Made by a program: the position numbers and the translations under genes. 64,000 nucleotides of DNA from a bacterium. Lineage in GTDB: Bacteria; Patescibacteriota; Minisyncoccia; UBA6257; 2-01-FULL-56-20. Of this stretch, positions 5,074 through 61,812 are shown piece by piece. Every line of letters starts with the position of its first letter. Position 1 is the first letter of the stretch. A model generated the notes under the pieces. That model was not told the origin of the DNA. It made no database searches and saw only the letters and a program-made list of their open reading frames with translations. The DNA is taken from the NCBI GenBank assembly GCA_027310965.1, contig DAICZW010000001.1:37236-101235 (forward strand), given 5' to 3'.

Positions 5074-5125
5074 GGCGATTGATAATTATTATTTTTTATA
5101 ATACGGTTTGTTTTGTGATTTTTTA

Positions 5126-5812
5126 TCAACTTATGATATCGATCGGCTTCTCTTTCAGTTTTTCAAAATCAACCAGTACGAAAAGACCGACGACGCCGAG
5201 GAATATGATCGAGTAAGCGATATTCTCATAGTTCAGTATAAGATAATTGAATGTGGCGTGCAACACGGTGGCGAGCGCGAGTCCGAAGGCGAGGAAGCGT
5301 ACCACTTTGCCGCGGATGATGCCTTTTGCCCAATAATATCCGACGACGCCCGACGCGAGGGAATGCAGGAGCGTTGCGCCAACGAAGCGGAGCGACGAGG
5401 TCTGGAAGATCGCGGCGATAAGCGCGGTCTGTTGCGGCATCGCGGCGATGGTGCCGATATTTTCGAGGGTGGCGAATCCGAGCGCGGCGACGATGGCGTA
5501 GATCATGGCGTCGACGGGCTCGGTGAAGCGCGGATCCTTATTGACGGCGAAATATGCCGCGCCGAATTTCAGGAATTCCTCTATGAATGCGAATACGATG
5601 AGCGCAATGACGGAGTATTCGCCGATGCCGGTTTCGCTGATGGCCTGCTTGAAGATCAATTCGATGCCGATGGCGAAAAGTCCGGCAATGATGCCGGCGG
5701 CAAACGCGAGCGCGATAAGCCGTTTCGGTTCGGGACGGGGATCTTCGCCGAGATAGAAAACCAGCCACGCGAAGCCGGGCGCAAGCGCAAGGATCAGCGA
5801 AAAGAGGAGCAT
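5126..5812 (-). CDS. PrsW-family intramembrane metalloprotease
   Basis: Multi-TM protein with the PrsW motifs EEFLK (EExxK), FATLEN (FxxxE) and HATFNY (HxxxN). Confidence 0.7.
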   Translation of the reverse strand: MLLFSLILALAPGFAWLVFYLGEDPRPEPKRLIALAFAAGIIAGLFAIGIELIFKQAISETGIGEYSVIALIVFAFIEEFLKFGAAYFAVNKDPRFTEPVDAMIYAIVAALGFATLENIGTIAAMPQQTALIAAIFQTSSLRFVGATLLHSLASGVVGYYWAKGIIRGKVVRFLAFGLALATVLHATFNYLILNYENIAYSIIFLGVVGLFVLVDFEKLKEKPIDIIS

Positions 5813-5935
5813 GGGTTTATTTTATCACATTGTTGCGCCACGCCCGCGCCGCCGAGGCATGTTGCCGGGAAATATACTTCGTAAAATTTTAATTTAAAAA
5901 GAAAAAAGCCGATCCATGAAGGACCAGCTTTATTT

Positions 5936-6685
5936 TTATAATCCGAAAATCATCTTCAGGCCGAGCAACCCTCCGATGATCACGAAAAGCAACTTTATAA
6001 ATTTGTTGCCTTTCTTTTGCACATGCCTTGATCCGAGATATGCGCCCGCAACCGATCCGGTTGCCGCGAAAATCATCATAGGAATGTCGTAATATCCGCG
6101 TTGAATGAACAGGATTGCGGCGAACAATGCCCATGAAAACGAGATGAGGTAGTAATGGGCGAGTCCATCCTTAAAATCGAACCCGTTTGTATGAACAGTC
6201 AGCGATGTAAACATAATGCCGTTCGCTGAACCGAACACTGTCTCGTAAAACCCGAGGACCAGCGCAAACGGCCATGCAATCGCCTGACGGAAGCGCGAAT
6301 AGACGTGATGTTCGCTAAGTCCGAAACCTTTCCTGAAGTAGGTATATACTGCCAGGAAGACGATGATAATACCCACGACGATTGCGAGAATCCGCTGATT
6401 CACGTCAATCGCGAAGATTACGCCGGCGTAGCAGCCGATAAGTCCCACGATTGAAAATATGGCGACGAGTGGCCAATGTATTTTCCTCCCGCCTTTCAGA
6501 TAATTCCTCGCCGCAGGAAGAACCCATGCCGCGGAATTCACCGATGAAACGGCGGCGACCAGTGGATACGACACTCCCATAGAAAGGAGGACTGGAAAAA
6601 GAATAACCCCCGCGCCGCCGCCCGACATCGAACTTAATCCTGCCGCGACGAACGCGATCGCGAAAATTAAAATATCTTGTAGCAT
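5936..6685 (-). CDS. TSUP (TauE/SafE) family anion exporter membrane protein
   Basis: 249 aa, ~8 TM segments, internally duplicated 4-TM halves with Gly-rich motifs typical of TauE/SafE. Confidence 0.7.
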   Translation of the reverse strand: MLQDILIFAIAFVAAGLSSMSGGGAGVILFPVLLSMGVSYPLVAAVSSVNSAAWVLPAARNYLKGGRKIHWPLVAIFSIVGLIGCYAGVIFAIDVNQRILAIVVGIIIVFLAVYTYFRKGFGLSEHHVYSRFRQAIAWPFALVLGFYETVFGSANGIMFTSLTVHTNGFDFKDGLAHYYLISFSWALFAAILFIQRGYYDIPMMIFAATGSVAGAYLGSRHVQKKGNKFIKLLFVIIGGLLGLKMIFGL

Positions 6686-55037: not shown

Positions 55038-55802
55038 ATGCATACTGTCCTTGTCATCGCAAAAAATACGTTCAAGCTTGAGATCCGCAACAAAATACTC
55101 TATGCCATCCTCGGGTTCGGCGTTCTTTATGCGGTCGTGATGCTTTTTCTGTCGGATCTCGTGCTTCAGGAGCTCCCCATGGTGAAAAGTTTCGGTCTTT
55201 TGGGAATTTATTTTTTCAATGTTATCGTGGCTCTTTTTCTCGGCACGACCTCGTTCCATAAAGACATTGAGCGGAAGATCGTTTATTTCATCCTTGCGAA
55301 ACCGGTCTCGCGGGCGCAATTCGTCATCGGAAAATTCACGGGGCTGTGCCTTGTCCTACTCTCATCGAGCGTCATGCTCGGCGCCGTATATTGCGGCGTC
55401 ATCGCATACGCGCACGGAGGGTTCGACGCCATGGGGCTTCTTGCGATCGCGATGCAATTCCTTGAAATGGCGCTCTTTCTCGCGTTCGCGATTTTCGTTA
55501 CGACGTTTTCAAGTTCGCTCTTGTCCATCGTCTACACTTCCGCCGTGTTTTTTGCGGGGCATATCGTGAGCTCGATCCTTGTCGATGCGAAGGCGATCGG
55601 GATCGGCGGTTTCAAGCTTTTGGCCGTCGAGGCAATGTATTACGTCCTTCCGAACCTTGAGAAATTCAATATCCGCGATTTCGCCGTGCATCCCGTCGCA
55701 ACGCCGTTCACTTTTTTCTTCATGGCGTTGTGTTATGCCGCCGCGTATATCGCGCTTCTTCTTTTTGCCGCCATCTGGATTTTCGAGAAGAAGGAATTAT
55801 AA
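55038..55802 (+). CDS. ABC-2 type transporter permease
   Basis: 254 aa with 6 TM segments, immediately downstream of the ABC ATPase. Confidence 0.7.
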   Translation: MHTVLVIAKNTFKLEIRNKILYAILGFGVLYAVVMLFLSDLVLQELPMVKSFGLLGIYFFNVIVALFLGTTSFHKDIERKIVYFILAKPVSRAQFVIGKFTGLCLVLLSSSVMLGAVYCGVIAYAHGGFDAMGLLAIAMQFLEMALFLAFAIFVTTFSSSLLSIVYTSAVFFAGHIVSSILVDAKAIGIGGFKLLAVEAMYYVLPNLEKFNIRDFAVHPVATPFTFFFMALCYAAAYIALLLFAAIWIFEKKEL

Positions 55803-55900
55803 AAGATGTTTTAGTGTTTTATATGTTATGGCGCAACGAAGAACGCAGCGAAAACGTTGTATCATTACATCATGAGAACATTGCAACACCTTTTCGCATT

Positions 55901-56746
55901 ATGAAAACCGACATTGCATTTAAATCGATAGTCGTTGCCGCGCTTTTCGCCGCCGTTATTTTTTTCCAGTACGGCTATGACGCGACGGCGGTTGCAACGG
56001 CAGCAGGGACCGCGCCCGTGCAGCTTTCTCCCGGCTTTGTCCGCACCGTCGATATGGGGTTCAATGCGCCCATCGCGTCATTTGCGTGGATCGGCACGAT
56101 GCCGGATATCATCGATCTTTTCCTGAACGGCAAGACGGAATATTTTTCCGGCCTTGATTTCGTGACGGGCGTCGATCCGAAGCTGAGCTACCCGTACGCT
56201 TTTTCCGTCATCACCGTTCCCGCCGTGGCGTCGTATCCGAATGCCGTGCAGACGGCGAATGCGATAGGCGCGCGCGGGCTCGCGGCGGCCGATCCCGACT
56301 GGCGGATACCGTTTTACATGGCGACGAATTATTTTCTCTATCTCAAGGACAAGGAAGACGCGCTCCGGTATTACGACATTGCCGCGCGGACGCCCGGCAT
56401 TCCGCCGGTCTCGCAGCGCTTTGCAATTAATTTCAGCATCGGATTTGGGACGCGCGCGCAGATGGAGAATCTTTGGAAAACGATCCGCGACACGACAAAC
56501 GACCCGTCCATGAAACAGCGCGCGCAGGCGTATATCGACCGGTTCGATGCGCTTGATTATCTTGAAGCCGCGGCGAAGCAATACAAAACGGAGTACGGCG
56601 CGTTTCCGAAAACGCCGAACGATCTTGTGGCGAAACATATCATCCCGCAAATTCCGCAGGACCCGTTCGGCTATGCGTTTATTTTCAACGCCGACGGTAC
56701 GGCGACCGTCGACATCGCGCACCCGCCGGCCGTGATCGGGCAGTGA
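55901..56746 (+). CDS. Exported/membrane-anchored hypothetical protein
   Basis: Start moved to MKTDIAFKSIVVAALFAAVIFF (signal/anchor). No recognisable family. Confidence 0.5.
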   Translation: MKTDIAFKSIVVAALFAAVIFFQYGYDATAVATAAGTAPVQLSPGFVRTVDMGFNAPIASFAWIGTMPDIIDLFLNGKTEYFSGLDFVTGVDPKLSYPYAFSVITVPAVASYPNAVQTANAIGARGLAAADPDWRIPFYMATNYFLYLKDKEDALRYYDIAARTPGIPPVSQRFAINFSIGFGTRAQMENLWKTIRDTTNDPSMKQRAQAYIDRFDALDYLEAAAKQYKTEYGAFPKTPNDLVAKHIIPQIPQDPFGYAFIFNADGTATVDIAHPPAVIGQ

Positions 56747-56810
56747 CGGGCTTTTCAGGAGATTTTCGTCCGCGTAAGTAAAACTTAATATTTGATGGTA
56801 TATTTATTAA

Positions 56811-57746
56811 ATGACAGGAATTTCGAAGTATATCCAATTTTTCAAGCGGCGTCGCGCGGACGCCGGAAAAGGCTGCTATAAAAAACCGAAAGTCGTGTTG
56901 GTCGATATCGACGGCACGGTCATAGAGCCCAAAATAAAAATGTTTACCTTGGCCGAACAGAAATTCGGAAAAGAAATAATGGCGAAGATCGAAAAGGAAA
57001 AAATACGTCCGTTAAGAAAAGAAATGACGGAAGGGAAAATCAGCTTTGAGAAGTACCTTCTCGAACTTTCGAAAATCAATATAGCACTGGGCCAGTCATA
57101 TCGGGATTATAAGGATTTTTTCTTTGATGTTGCGGAAAAAAAGCTCATCAATGAGCCGCTTGTCCGCGCTTTGGGCAATATAAAGAGAAAAAATAAAATT
57201 AAGGTTATCTTTCTTACGTCAAATTTGAGAGTCTACGGGGAAATTATCGCCGATAATGTTTTAAAATTATTGGGAGAGAAGGGAAAATTCGACGGGTGCG
57301 TCGGAGAAGAAAAAGAGTTCAATGAAAAAGGAAAAGGGAAGGCGATAAAAGTGAAAAGCATCATCAGCCACAGAAACGCGGTTTGCGAAGGGGTGAAATT
57401 CATGACCAAAATCGCCGCCATAAAAGAATATTTCAGGAAAAATAAAATAAACGTGAAAGACGAAGCAGTGGCGGTCATAAGCGACGCGGATACCGCTCTT
57501 ATGAAGCACTTCGGGCTTGGCGGATTGGTGCTGTATCCGTGGCGGGAGCTTTCCGACCAGTTCAGGCATATTGAGTACGTGAGGAATGCGCGAAAAGGAC
57601 TTTTCGATTTTTGCGTCGATTATCGGAAAGAAAAAGATCTTCCGGTCGCGCAAAAAAAGTGGGAGCTGATATTGGACAATCCCGCCGTTCTGGAATTTTC
57701 TGACATAAAAATAAAAGCGATATTAAAAAATGGCGCAAAAAAATAA
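56811..57746 (+). CDS. HAD-like hydrolase (DxDGT motif) encoded in an AT-rich island
   Basis: VVLVDIDGTVIE motif I. Lys-rich, visibly lower GC than the flanks. Overlaps the next gene by 17 nt. Confidence 0.55.
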   Translation: MTGISKYIQFFKRRRADAGKGCYKKPKVVLVDIDGTVIEPKIKMFTLAEQKFGKEIMAKIEKEKIRPLRKEMTEGKISFEKYLLELSKINIALGQSYRDYKDFFFDVAEKKLINEPLVRALGNIKRKNKIKVIFLTSNLRVYGEIIADNVLKLLGEKGKFDGCVGEEKEFNEKGKGKAIKVKSIISHRNAVCEGVKFMTKIAAIKEYFRKNKINVKDEAVAVISDADTALMKHFGLGGLVLYPWRELSDQFRHIEYVRNARKGLFDFCVDYRKEKDLPVAQKKWELILDNPAVLEFSDIKIKAILKNGAKK

Positions 57747-58275
57747 AATAATCATCGCGTTATATGGTCCTGCGGGAACGGGAAAAACCGCGGTTGCCGG
57801 AAAACTTTGCAGGAAATTACCCGGCAAAACGGCGAGAATTTCCGTGGACATATTGCGGGACATGACGTGCCTGTGTTTTGGCAGTTGGAAAGAAAGCGAT
57901 GCCCATATAACATTAGGGAAAAAAACAGCCGTGCTTTTGGCGAAGGAATACGTGCGACGGGGATATAACGTGGTTATCGAAGTGGCGCCGCCCACGATAT
58001 ACGATAAGGGAAAAACCGATAAATGGCTGGCGCTTTCTTTGAAGAAAATGGGAGCCCGTGTTTTTCTTCTTGATGCGCCGCTGGCATCGGTCCTGAAAAG
58101 AAATAAAAAACGGAAAGGGGAATTCGGACAAGGCAATTTGAGCGGGAAATTAACCGAGAAACTTTATGGTTATTGCCAAAAATACCTTGATAAAAAAGAT
58201 TACATTATCATTGATACGGAAAAAATCGGCGCGGACAAAACGGCGGCGCTGATTCTGAAAGCAAAAAATCATTGA
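57730..58275 (+). CDS. P-loop small-molecule kinase (AAA_33 / chloramphenicol-phosphotransferase / zeta-toxin-like fold)
   Basis: Walker A ALYGPAGTGKTAV, followed by ISVDILRD (CPT-like substrate-binding Asp region). Confidence 0.55.
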   Translation: MAQKNKIIIALYGPAGTGKTAVAGKLCRKLPGKTARISVDILRDMTCLCFGSWKESDAHITLGKKTAVLLAKEYVRRGYNVVIEVAPPTIYDKGKTDKWLALSLKKMGARVFLLDAPLASVLKRNKKRKGEFGQGNLSGKLTEKLYGYCQKYLDKKDYIIIDTEKIGADKTAALILKAKNH

Positions 58276-58301
58276 CTATCCACCGCGTGCGTGGTAATAT
58301 T
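58273..58301 (+). promoter_or_regulatory. Putative sigma70 promoter of purB
   Basis: TTGACT, 17 nt, TAATAT. The leader contains a GACCGTTcaACGGTC hairpin followed by a T-run, which could be an attenuator. Confidence 0.5.
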
Positions 58302-58402
58302 TTCATTACAAAAACGACCGTTCAACGGTCATTTTTCAGCTCATTTAAAATTGAATAAAGATAAAAATCTTAAAAGCGCGGAATGCGCAAGGGAGGAAAT
58401 CA

Positions 58403-59722
58403 ATGTTGGAAAGGTACAGCAGGAAAGAAATGACCGGCATCTGGTCGGAACGGAACAAATTTTTGCGATGGTTGTCGGTGGAACTGGCCGTACTCAGGGC
58501 GAGGCAGCATATAGGCGAGCTTATATACGATGGTTCTTGGGATTTTGCGGGGGAAATTCGCATTGATCCCGAGGAAATCAACCGCATTGAAAAAGAGATT
58601 ACGGGACATGATGTGATTGCGTTTCTCGAACATTTATCGCCCCAGTTTCCGGAAGAGCTTCGTCCGTGGTTACATAGAGGATTGACATCATACGACGTCG
58701 GGGACACGGCGCTGAGCATGCAGATGCGCGAAAGCGTCAGGCTGCTGATCGAGGGAATCATGAAACTTATGGATGCGGTCAGGGAAAAGGCTCTTGAGTA
58801 TAAGTACGCGCCGCAGATCGGACGCACGCACGGCGTTCATGCCGAGCCGATTACGTTCGGGGTCAAGCTGGCTAATTGGTATGATGAGCTTCACCGGCAT
58901 CGGGACAGGCTTATCAGGCTTTGTAGCGTTGTTGCGGTCGGCAAGATAAGCGGAGCGGTCGGCATGTATACGATCGATCCGAAAATCGAGGAATTGGTTT
59001 GCGAAGAATTATGGCTTAAACCTGTCATTGCCACGCAAATCATTGCGCGCGACATCGCGGCCGAGTATATGTCCGTGTTAGGTATCGTTGCCGCCACAAT
59101 CGGCAAGATAGCCACCAATCTCAGGTTGCTTTCAAAAACGGAAATTGGCGAGGTTATGGAGCCGTTCGGCAGGAACCAGAAAGGTTCATCGGCGATGCCG
59201 CACAAGAAGAACCCGATAGGGAGTGAAAATTTGTCGGGCCTGATGCGTGTCGTTCGCGCGAATGTCCAGGTTGCCCTGGAAAACCTTGCAACGTGCTGGG
59301 ATGAGCGCAGTTTGGACAATTCCGGTCCGGAGAGAGTCATTATTCCCGATTCTTCGATTCTCCTTGATTATGCCATAGACCGGCTTACCGGCATCATCGA
59401 AAAGATGAGGGTTTTTCCCGGCAGGATGCTGATTAATATTGATCACACCAAGGGGCTTGTCTTTTCCCAGGATGTTATGATGCTTGTTGCGGAAAAAAGC
59501 GGCTTGCCCCGGGAAGAGGCGCATACCTTGATTCGCGACATTGCGTTGGGATGCTGGGAGAATCAGGCGAAAGGGCTTGCTGTAGATTTTGATTTTTTGG
59601 AAGCTTTGCTCGCCAACGATATCGTCATGCGGTTCGTTAGCGAGAAAGATTTAAAATCGTGTTTCAATCTCACAAAAAAATTACAGCACGTCAATCATAT
59701 TTTCGACAAAGTATTCGGTTGA
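58403..59722 (+). CDS. purB: Adenylosuccinate lyase
   Basis: MLERYSRKEMTGIWSERNKF N-terminus and fumarate-lyase signature GSSAMPHKKNP. Confidence 0.9.
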   Translation: MLERYSRKEMTGIWSERNKFLRWLSVELAVLRARQHIGELIYDGSWDFAGEIRIDPEEINRIEKEITGHDVIAFLEHLSPQFPEELRPWLHRGLTSYDVGDTALSMQMRESVRLLIEGIMKLMDAVREKALEYKYAPQIGRTHGVHAEPITFGVKLANWYDELHRHRDRLIRLCSVVAVGKISGAVGMYTIDPKIEELVCEELWLKPVIATQIIARDIAAEYMSVLGIVAATIGKIATNLRLLSKTEIGEVMEPFGRNQKGSSAMPHKKNPIGSENLSGLMRVVRANVQVALENLATCWDERSLDNSGPERVIIPDSSILLDYAIDRLTGIIEKMRVFPGRMLINIDHTKGLVFSQDVMMLVAEKSGLPREEAHTLIRDIALGCWENQAKGLAVDFDFLEALLANDIVMRFVSEKDLKSCFNLTKKLQHVNHIFDKVFG

Positions 59723-61010: not shown

Positions 61011-61210
61011 TTATTTTTGAGGGACGGGCTCTCTTAAGTCCCTCAAAAATAAAAATACTCCGTCTGATGCGGAAATAAGAAACGAGGGACGGGTTCTCTT
61101 AAGTCCCTCAAAAATAAAAATGCTCCGTCTGATGCGGAAACAAAGGAGGGGTTCTTTTTGCTCCTTCGCGAATAAAAATGCTCCGTCTGGTGCGGAAATA
61201 AAAGAATGAA
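61011..61210. repeat. Tandem array of three ~62-bp units, each a hairpin with loop GGGYTCTCTTAA/GGGTTCT plus a conserved 3' tail AAAATRCTCCGTCTGRTGCGGAAA
   Basis: GAGGGACGGGCTCTCTTAAGTCCCTC repeated three times with compensatory stem changes in the third copy (AAGGAG...CTCCTT). Confidence 0.7.
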
Positions 61211-61272: not shown

Positions 61273-61812
61273 ATGAAAAAGAAAAATTCCGGCGGCAATA
61301 ATATCGGGTTGAAAGAACTTTTCAGCGAAGTGAAGAAAATAGGTTCTCGCATGGACGATCGCGATGTCGAAATAAGGAAGATCGGTGTCCTCATGGAAAG
61401 CCATGATATTGAAATAAAAAAGATAGGCGTCATTTTGGAAAGCCATGATGTCGAAATAAGGAAGATTGGTGTCCTTTTGGAAGAACGCGACGACAAACTC
61501 GACTTGGTTTTGGAAGGATATGCCGCGCTGGATAAAAAGATCGATGATCTTCACGAAGAGATGAATGAACGGTTTGCGATTGTTGATTTTAAATTCGGCA
61601 TTGTTTTTGAAGAAATAAACGGGATAAAAGGCGAGATTATTGTAATAAATGGACGATTGGAAAGAATTGAAGGACGGCTCGAAAAACTCGAAGTGCGGAT
61701 AGGGAAAGTCGAAGTACGGCTGGAAAAAGTCGAGGGAACGCTTGTGGAAATTCGCAGCGATTTAAATGCCGAAACGGATTGCGGCGAATTGGCTGTATTT
61801 AAAAGCCTATAA
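61273..61812 (+). CDS. Coiled-coil hypothetical protein with internal 14-aa (42-nt) tandem repeats
   Basis: RDVEIRKIGVLMES / HDIEIKKIGVILES / HDVEIRKIGVLLEE, and later RLERIEGRLEKLEVRIGKVEVRLEKVEG. Confidence 0.55.
   Translation: MKKKNSGGNNIGLKELFSEVKKIGSRMDDRDVEIRKIGVLMESHDIEIKKIGVILESHDVEIRKIGVLLEERDDKLDLVLEGYAALDKKIDDLHEEMNERFAIVDFKFGIVFEEINGIKGEIIVINGRLERIEGRLEKLEVRIGKVEVRLEKVEGTLVEIRSDLNAETDCGELAVFKSL

Follow-up and report, generated by a model that had tools for sequence, protein, structure and literature searches.

The window analysed here, 64,000 nucleotides (nt) of the Patescibacteriota contig DAICZW010000001.1 (assembly GCA_027310965.1), carries two overlapping genes which encode a HAD-superfamily phosphatase and a P-loop kinase. 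We lean towards the view that this pair is a lineage-specific housekeeping operon, vertically inherited within one Parcubacteria lineage (Paceibacterota, including Wolfebacteria and Niyogibacteria), and that its products are two soluble, very basic enzymes acting on one small phosphorylated metabolite. The pair is a divergent, lineage-restricted member of known enzyme kinds, a HAD phosphatase and an AAA_33 kinase, and not a new kind of system. The original prediction, made from the sequence alone, had described two open reading frames (ORFs) sharing 17 nt, which are exactly as it described them, and had suggested that a kinase and a phosphatase act on one small molecule, which is still the best general reading. 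The features of the locus are as follows (aa, amino acids):

56811..57746, + strand: HAD-superfamily phosphatase gene, 311 aa, C1-capped, resembling phosphoserine phosphatase (PSP) and cytosolic 5′-nucleotidase III (cN-III)
57730..58275, + strand: P-loop kinase gene, 181 aa, AAA_33 family
57730..57746, + strand: 17 nt in which the 3′ end of the HAD gene overlaps the 5′ end of the kinase gene, read from the sequence
56747..56810, + strand: AT-rich 64-nt intergenic leader 5′ of the HAD gene, presumed promoter region, read from the sequence
58316..58337, + strand: terminator-like hairpin GACCGTTCAACGGTC (58316-58330) followed by ATTTTTC, from a consensus scan, weakly supported

Co-inheritance of the two genes

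Each protein has about 35–45 relatives (clusters at 90% identity), which are 56–81% identical to it, and the HAD and kinase homologue lists originate from the same contigs. All named sources of these relatives are Patescibacteria (Paceibacterota, Parcubacteria, Niyogibacteria and Wolfebacteria), and the pair as such is seen in about 40 Patescibacteria/Parcubacteria lineages. The HAD gene precedes the kinase gene on the same strand in all 11 genomes inspected; the two overlap by 4–17 nt in nine of them and lie 1–5 nt apart in the other two. The overlap probably reflects translational coupling. Pairwise identity matrices of the HAD and of the kinase, computed over 16 genomes, are correlated (Mantel r = 0.67, a value reached by none of 5000 permutations), and we therefore conclude that the two genes share one history.

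A single candidate for a natural HAD-kinase fusion, P0073 (350 aa; Logan contig, 2660 bp), consists of the first 247 or so residues of the HAD followed directly by the kinase from about residue 77 on. It has neither the C-terminal extension of the HAD nor the P-loop of the kinase, and was rejected as a deletion or an assembly chimera.

The HAD phosphatase

The upstream protein had been assigned to the HAD phosphatases from its DxDGT nucleophile motif, and this assignment stood: the motif is intact (D32-I-D34-G-T36, DIDGT at residues 32–36), the fold is the Rossmannoid HAD fold, all four catalytic motifs are present and the PF00702 gathering threshold is passed, by a small margin (28.0 bits against 26.4). 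Among 31 homologues the invariant residues are D32-x-D34-G-T36 in motif I, T136-S137-N138 in motif II, K200 in motif III and S224-D225-A-D227 in motif IV. An Asp two residues after the nucleophile is the mark of phosphatases and phosphomutases, not of dehalogenases or P-type ATPases.

In the AlphaFold2 model (pLDDT 90.5, pTM 0.90), five helices (residues 46–128) directly follow motif I and form a C1 cap, and a beta-hairpin is inserted between motifs II and III. Invariant residues of the cap are M44, E49, E61, R69, F79, E80, Y82, D99, F104 and N114. Also conserved are a basic helix at the N terminus and, at the C terminus, an extension of about 70 aa (residues 245–308). The closest folds are those of phosphoserine phosphatases and of cytosolic 5′-nucleotidase III. 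At the sequence level the protein does not belong to the SerB/PSP group, with no NCBIfam SerB/PSP match at E ≤ 1 and no PSP of the Protein Data Bank (PDB) retrieved by the family profile; no solved structure in the PDB was matched significantly, whether the search used the single sequence or that profile. It does not belong to HAD_PNKP (PF25109) either, being C1-capped and not capless (C0).

The family is narrow. Its profile, searched against 1.84 billion cluster representatives, retrieved 23 proteins at E ≤ 1e-3 and three at E ≤ 1e-30. The distant matches are PF12710 HADs of about 300 aa, one of which has a weak match to UMPH-1 (pyrimidine 5′-nucleotidase). We examined the contigs of three remote relatives of about 300 aa (L014, L022 and L023; E from 1e-12 to 1e-7): one comes from a Candidatus Ainarchaeum metagenome-assembled genome, the contig of another bears genes for an archaeal-type histone and Hef/XPF, and no kinase gene neighbours the HAD gene at any of the three. 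This hints at a HAD lineage common to, or exchanged between, small-genome archaea and these small-genome bacteria. The family would be a new and very divergent branch of the capped HAD phosphatases.

The kinase

The Walker A motif is found where it had been noted, at residues 13–20 (GPAGTGKT, G13-PAGTG-K19-T20), followed by RISVDILRD. Invariant or nearly invariant positions in the family are G13 and G18-K19-T20, D40 followed by R43, and the lid R124-N125-x-x-R128 (R124-N125-K-K-R128 in the window kinase); together they make up a complete site for phosphotransfer. The site that holds DxTN in the PNK/PSTK kinases is occupied by E84-V-A-P87-P-T, a feature common to BH3686.

Membership of AAA_33 (PF13671) is clear, with 37.2 bits for the window kinase against a cut-off of 27 and matches in 35 of 35 relatives, and this is the only Pfam family above threshold. 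The profile search proposed with the original prediction thus bears out AAA_33, but neither CPT nor Zeta_toxin is among the best 25 Pfam families of the window kinase. Across the 35 family members, weak Pfam matches were obtained to Zeta_toxin (18, best 5e-6, sub-threshold), to CPT (8) and to Kti12 (2). The most consistent named model is PSTK (TIGR03574), which matches all 35 over the full kinase domain (best 5e-12); the protein is nevertheless not a PSTK, scoring 32.7 bits against a cut-off of 290.5 and having neither the C-terminal tRNA-binding domain nor DxTN. NCBIfam models of PRK06762 come next (up to 34 of 35 members; 16–20 bits against cut-offs of 140–349). Archaeal CMP kinase (22 of 35, best 2e-8), uridine kinase (18 of 35) and PezT (4 of 35) models also match, and the PHROG matches are polynucleotide kinase (best, 6e-9), thymidylate kinase (4e-8) and generic kinases. 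When the family profile was run against the PDB, BH3686 (2bdt) came first (3e-7, residues 8–144), then PSTK (6e-6) and the N-terminal half of PezT (1.4e-3). The family is as narrow as that of the HAD: 44 clusters, with nothing between E = 1e-41 and 1e-3.

The fold comparison ranked the following structures, with their scores:

Atu3015: 16.9
Shikimate kinase: 16.3
BH3686: 15.9
Chloramphenicol phosphotransferase (CPT): 15.5
APS kinase: 15.5
Gluconate kinase: 15.3
PSTK and TmrD: 14.5
Polynucleotide kinases: 12–13.4

Foldseek agrees with this ranking (TM 0.6–0.7). No zeta toxin appears within the top 60, and the window kinase reaches neither the PF07931 (CPT) nor the PF06414 (Zeta toxin/PezT) gathering threshold.

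D40/R43 and R124-N-x-x-R128 align with D41 and 116-RNxxR-121 of PSTK, which are required for PSTK activity (PMC2275090). According to that paper, gluconate kinase, CPT and adenylate kinase carry these motifs too, and the acceptor substrate can therefore not be read from them.

Base composition of the pair

A sharp drop in base composition, together with Lys-rich proteins, had been taken to be consistent with horizontal acquisition. The drop is real and beyond chance: the G+C content (GC) of the pair is 42.9% against 50.7% for the window, about 3 standard deviations (SD) under the mean. Among windows of the same size (SD 2.6 points) 0.4% are equally low, and the GC minimum of the window falls in the pair. 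Lys makes up 16.0% of the HAD and 15.4% of the kinase against 4–9% in neighbouring genes, and its codon AAA is used 69% of the time here; the drop is therefore largely an amino-acid effect. We also computed the GC at third codon positions (GC3) expected from the amino-acid content of each gene and the window's own codon table (SD of z across window ORFs, 2.2), and the residual of the HAD gene (z = −1.8) is within the spread of the window genes.

In each of 10 related loci the GC of the pair falls below that of the flanks, by a mean of 5.2 points, and it tracks the GC of the host flanks (r = 0.87), from 32% in genomes of 38% GC up to 52% in a genome of 58% GC. The pair is thus long resident, with a built-in compositional bias, and is no recent import. 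A genome-average GC, named in the original prediction as a refutation, was not what we found, but the transfer that had been deduced from the low GC nevertheless does not hold: the sharp local trough is the composition of Lys-rich proteins, not horizontal transfer.

A second low-GC ORF lies at 61273-61812 (+ strand; 41% GC) and encodes an acidic protein of 179 aa with 10.6% Lys, for which no Pfam match is on record. It carries internal repeats of 42 nt (14 aa) and 21 nt and appears to be a repetitive coiled-coil-like protein (...DVEIRKIGVLMESHDIEIKKIGV...). In this window, low GC accompanies Lys/Ile/Glu-rich proteins more generally, as this ORF illustrates. Between ychF and this ORF (61019-61202) a 65-nt unit is repeated in tandem (1.9 copies, 96% identity; an overlapping reading has a 58-nt period), and every unit has a short palindromic core, GAGGGAC...GTCCCTC.

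Proposed function and rival explanations

We infer that both enzymes are active and share a substrate. A small substrate is suggested because the HAD is capped and the kinase is compact, single-domain and nearest to metabolite kinases. With its Walker A motif, Asp40/Arg43 and the R124-N-x-x-R128 lid, the kinase would phosphorylate a hydroxyl of the substrate with the gamma-phosphate of ATP. In the HAD, Asp32 would be the nucleophile and Asp34 the general acid/base, Thr136/Ser137 and Lys200 would bind the phosphate and Asp225/Asp227 the Mg2+, and the enzyme would hydrolyse a phosphomonoester of the compound used by the kinase or of its immediate product. The two activities could be combined in two ways. 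They might act at different positions or steps, on adjacent intermediates, the kinase adding a phosphate at one position and the HAD removing another, so that phosphate is relocated overall; there are precedents in the heptose kinase/GmhB pathway and in T4 Pnkp, which works on two ends. Alternatively, they might oppose each other in a homeostatic cycle setting the level of one phospho-metabolite, as in PFK-2/FBPase-2.

Our best guess for the substrate class would be a nucleoside or a nucleotide-like compound. The hints are weak: the resemblance to cN-III, the UMPH-1 match, the CMP, uridine and thymidylate kinase models, and neighbours in nucleotide metabolism, namely purB, adk and a NUDIX gene as immediate neighbours and thyX about 2.7 kb off, each in a different genome. 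Such a substrate would be in keeping with salvage or house-cleaning in an organism that relies on scavenged nucleotides.

Several observations weigh against a shared small metabolite or against simple vertical descent. The best sequence models of the kinase, PSTK and phage polynucleotide kinase, describe enzymes that act on nucleic-acid-linked substrates. Both protein families are basic (pI 9.6–9.9, net charge +15 to +24), the kinase being the most positively charged of the 48 window proteins and the HAD the third, and this basicity suits the binding of polyanions no less well than it does small-molecule chemistry. No gene recurs beside the pair over 11 neighbourhoods, so none defines a pathway. 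A position that differs between genomes would also be expected of a mobile cassette, and the amino-acid-corrected GC3 residual of the kinase gene is somewhat low (z = −3.4). Only seven species representatives of GTDB turned up in a scan, which was limited by its pattern.

The strongest rival is a split system for healing polynucleotide or tRNA-linked ends, a two-polypeptide analogue of T4/mammalian PNKP, in which the kinase would act on 5′-OH ends or, like PSTK, on a hydroxyl of a tRNA-bound moiety, and the HAD would strip 3′- or 2′-phosphates; we hold it to be unlikely. A P-loop kinase with a DxDGT HAD phosphatase is exactly the domain composition of PNKP, and to the PSTK and polynucleotide kinase models, the aligned PSTK motifs and the family-wide basicity can be added weak HAD_PNKP matches in 3 of 31 HAD members and translation-related surroundings (the spc operon, and places beside tyrS, frr and rny). 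However, the DxTN that names the PNK/PSTK kinase family is replaced, the HAD has a C1 cap, PNK structures stand lower in the fold ranking, and at 181 aa against about 250 in PSTK the kinase has no C-terminal tRNA-binding domain; and none of the 11 contexts has an RNA ligase, Hen1 or RtcB gene beside the pair. It is quite unlikely that the pair is a nucleic-acid- or tRNA-directed system unrecognised so far, in which a PSTK/PNK-like kinase and a capped PSP-like HAD put phosphate on and take it off an RNA end or a tRNA-bound moiety (e.g. seryl/phosphoseryl). If so, it would be a split end-healing or aminoacyl-tRNA-editing module with a capped HAD working on a macromolecular substrate.

The two remaining explanations take up suggestions of the original prediction, and neither was supported. 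A kinase toxin of the Zeta/PezT or AvrRxo1 type, with the HAD as an antidote that takes the phosphate off the poisoned metabolite, is very unlikely, and so is a resistance kinase that modifies antibiotics (CPT/TmrD/Gar-like): no positive support was obtained for a toxin/antidote pair, and both ideas draw on superfamily-level resemblance only. They have on their side the sub-threshold Zeta_toxin, CPT and PezT matches, the high places of CPT and TmrD among structural matches, and a partner-first overlapping order that resembles type II toxin-antitoxin loci. Zeta toxins are about 250–290 aa long, against 181 aa here, and toxin-antitoxin and resistance genes tend to be mobile, with a patchy distribution, whereas these genes are conserved across the clade, co-evolve and can sit in housekeeping operons. 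The partner is a 311-aa HAD enzyme without a DNA-binding domain for autoregulation, not an epsilon- or PezA-type antitoxin, and a padloc scan gave P-loop-level noise only. The AvrRxo1 homologues reported from Parcubacteria are 893-aa Fic-fusion proteins (PMC4938570), unrelated to the window kinase. Least probable of all is a recent, horizontally acquired AT-rich island from a lower-GC donor, although the pair is the lowest-GC segment of the window, varies in position between related genomes and shows the low kinase GC3, and most relatives come from lower-GC genomes (flanks of 38–45% GC in 9 of 10 related loci). Against it stand the offset kept in all 10 related loci, a GC that follows the host, the unremarkable GC3 of the HAD gene, co-inheritance across the Parcubacteria clade, housekeeping neighbours, and the absence of signs of mobility. 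The locus does not qualify as a genomic island, and the hypothesis is largely refuted, with a small residual doubt from the kinase GC3. A phage origin was rejected as well, the PHROG matches being to generic kinases and IMG/VR holding no relatives.

Genomic surroundings and expression signals

In the window (L001) the order is ABC transporter, hypothetical gene, the pair, purB, ychF and UDG. Gene order in Parcubacteria is generally fluid, and the surroundings of the pair differ in nearly every genome, with at least 10 distinct contexts that are always housekeeping. Examples from related loci are:

L009: ...L15, secY, pair, adk, map, inside the ribosomal-protein (spc) operon
L011: grpE, dnaK, dnaJ, pair
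L007 and L021: murA, mreB, pair, holB, frr, rseP
L012: gltX, M23 peptidase, pair, NUDIX
L016: tyrS, pair
L018: rny, gpmI, MFS transporter, pair

At L009 (GCA_041643235.1, JBGGGZ010000013.1) the pair lies at 5085-6546 and is 75% identical to that of the window. A location in the spc operon is unusual for genes unrelated to translation and suggests high, constitutive co-expression.

As had been noted, no integrase, repeat or tRNA is adjacent to the pair: the nearest tRNA is about 13 kb away, only short chance matches were found as flanking repeats, and no integrase or recombinase is linked to the pair in the window. Two IMG/VR scans of viral contigs returned no viral relatives. At L020, 519-2144, a large ORF for a serine recombinase runs into the gene of a tRNA-Ser(TGA) (minus strand, 2025-2114) about 2.5 kb from the pair; judging by the orientation of the tRNA, this probably marks the border of an integrated element that extends away from the pair.

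A sigma-70 consensus scan of the leader (56747..56810) gave no site, and Rfam had zero matches in 55500-59500, so that no riboswitch or other RNA element lies near the operon. The terminator-like hairpin starts 41 nt past the kinase stop codon and is the probable end of the two-gene operon, with weak support, the terminator scan of the region having given 5 sites against 4.1 expected from shuffles. A promoter-like site at 58272-58300 (TTGACT, a 17-nt spacer, TAATAT and an extended −10 TG), found by the consensus scan only, overlaps the kinase stop codon 5′ of purB; given this site, purB may be transcribed independently of the pair.

Significance

The genomes of Patescibacteria are tiny, and much of their conserved gene set has no assigned function. 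The pair is such a conserved unknown in a minimal genome, and nothing in hand would surprise a specialist. Both families are nearly without detectable relatives among 1.8 billion protein clusters. Because the pair is strictly co-inherited, is probably coupled and can sit in a ribosomal-protein operon, it is unlikely to be dispensable in its clade. Once identified, the substrate could bring to light a step of salvage or quality control that only these symbionts have.

Comparison with known systems

The closest counterparts of the kinase are BH3686 (2bdt), Atu3015 (1zp6) and PRK06762, uncharacterised bacterial AAA_33 kinases with about 16–20% identity to it. BH3686 shares the ESDE segment after the catalytic Asp, a strand [DE]-x-[IA]-A-x-P in place of DxTN and an Arg-rich lid. 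These kinases are not known to be paired with a HAD gene. In the literature we found nothing on BH3686 or PRK06762 nor on a HAD-kinase pair in Patescibacteria, and no characterised member of either family.

PSTK and Kti12 (TIGR03574, PF08433) have a kinase domain that aligns end to end with the window kinase and keeps the P-loop, the D41-equivalent Asp and the RNxxR lid. PSTK differs in possessing a tRNA-binding C-terminal domain and DxTN, both lacking here, and has no HAD partner; it is an enzyme of archaea and eukaryotes that is linked to SepSecS (PMC2275090). CPT and zeta/PezT are set apart by the score of the window kinase, which is below both Pfam models, and by genes that here are not mobile and show housekeeping-like conservation.

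Among two-activity systems, T4/mammalian PNKP also combines a P-loop kinase of the same superfamily with a DxDGT HAD, and by this likeness the activities would be complementary, not futile. Here, however, each activity has a polypeptide of its own, the HAD bears a C1 cap and is not of the capless type, the kinase is without DxTN, no ligase accompanies the pair, and PNK structures are only mid-ranking in the fold comparison. PFKFB is a single fused, eukaryotic polypeptide whose phosphatase is a histidine phosphatase and not a HAD, and no sequence relationship to it beyond fold was detected.

The HAD itself shares with the PSP-like HAD-IB enzymes and with cN-III (UMPH-1/cN-IIIB) the helical cap after motif I and the beta-hairpin insert, at 9–16% identity. 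Unlike them it has a basic helix added at the N terminus and a conserved extension of about 70 aa at the C terminus; it also differs from PSP in motif IV, which is S-D-A-D here and GDGxxD in PSP.

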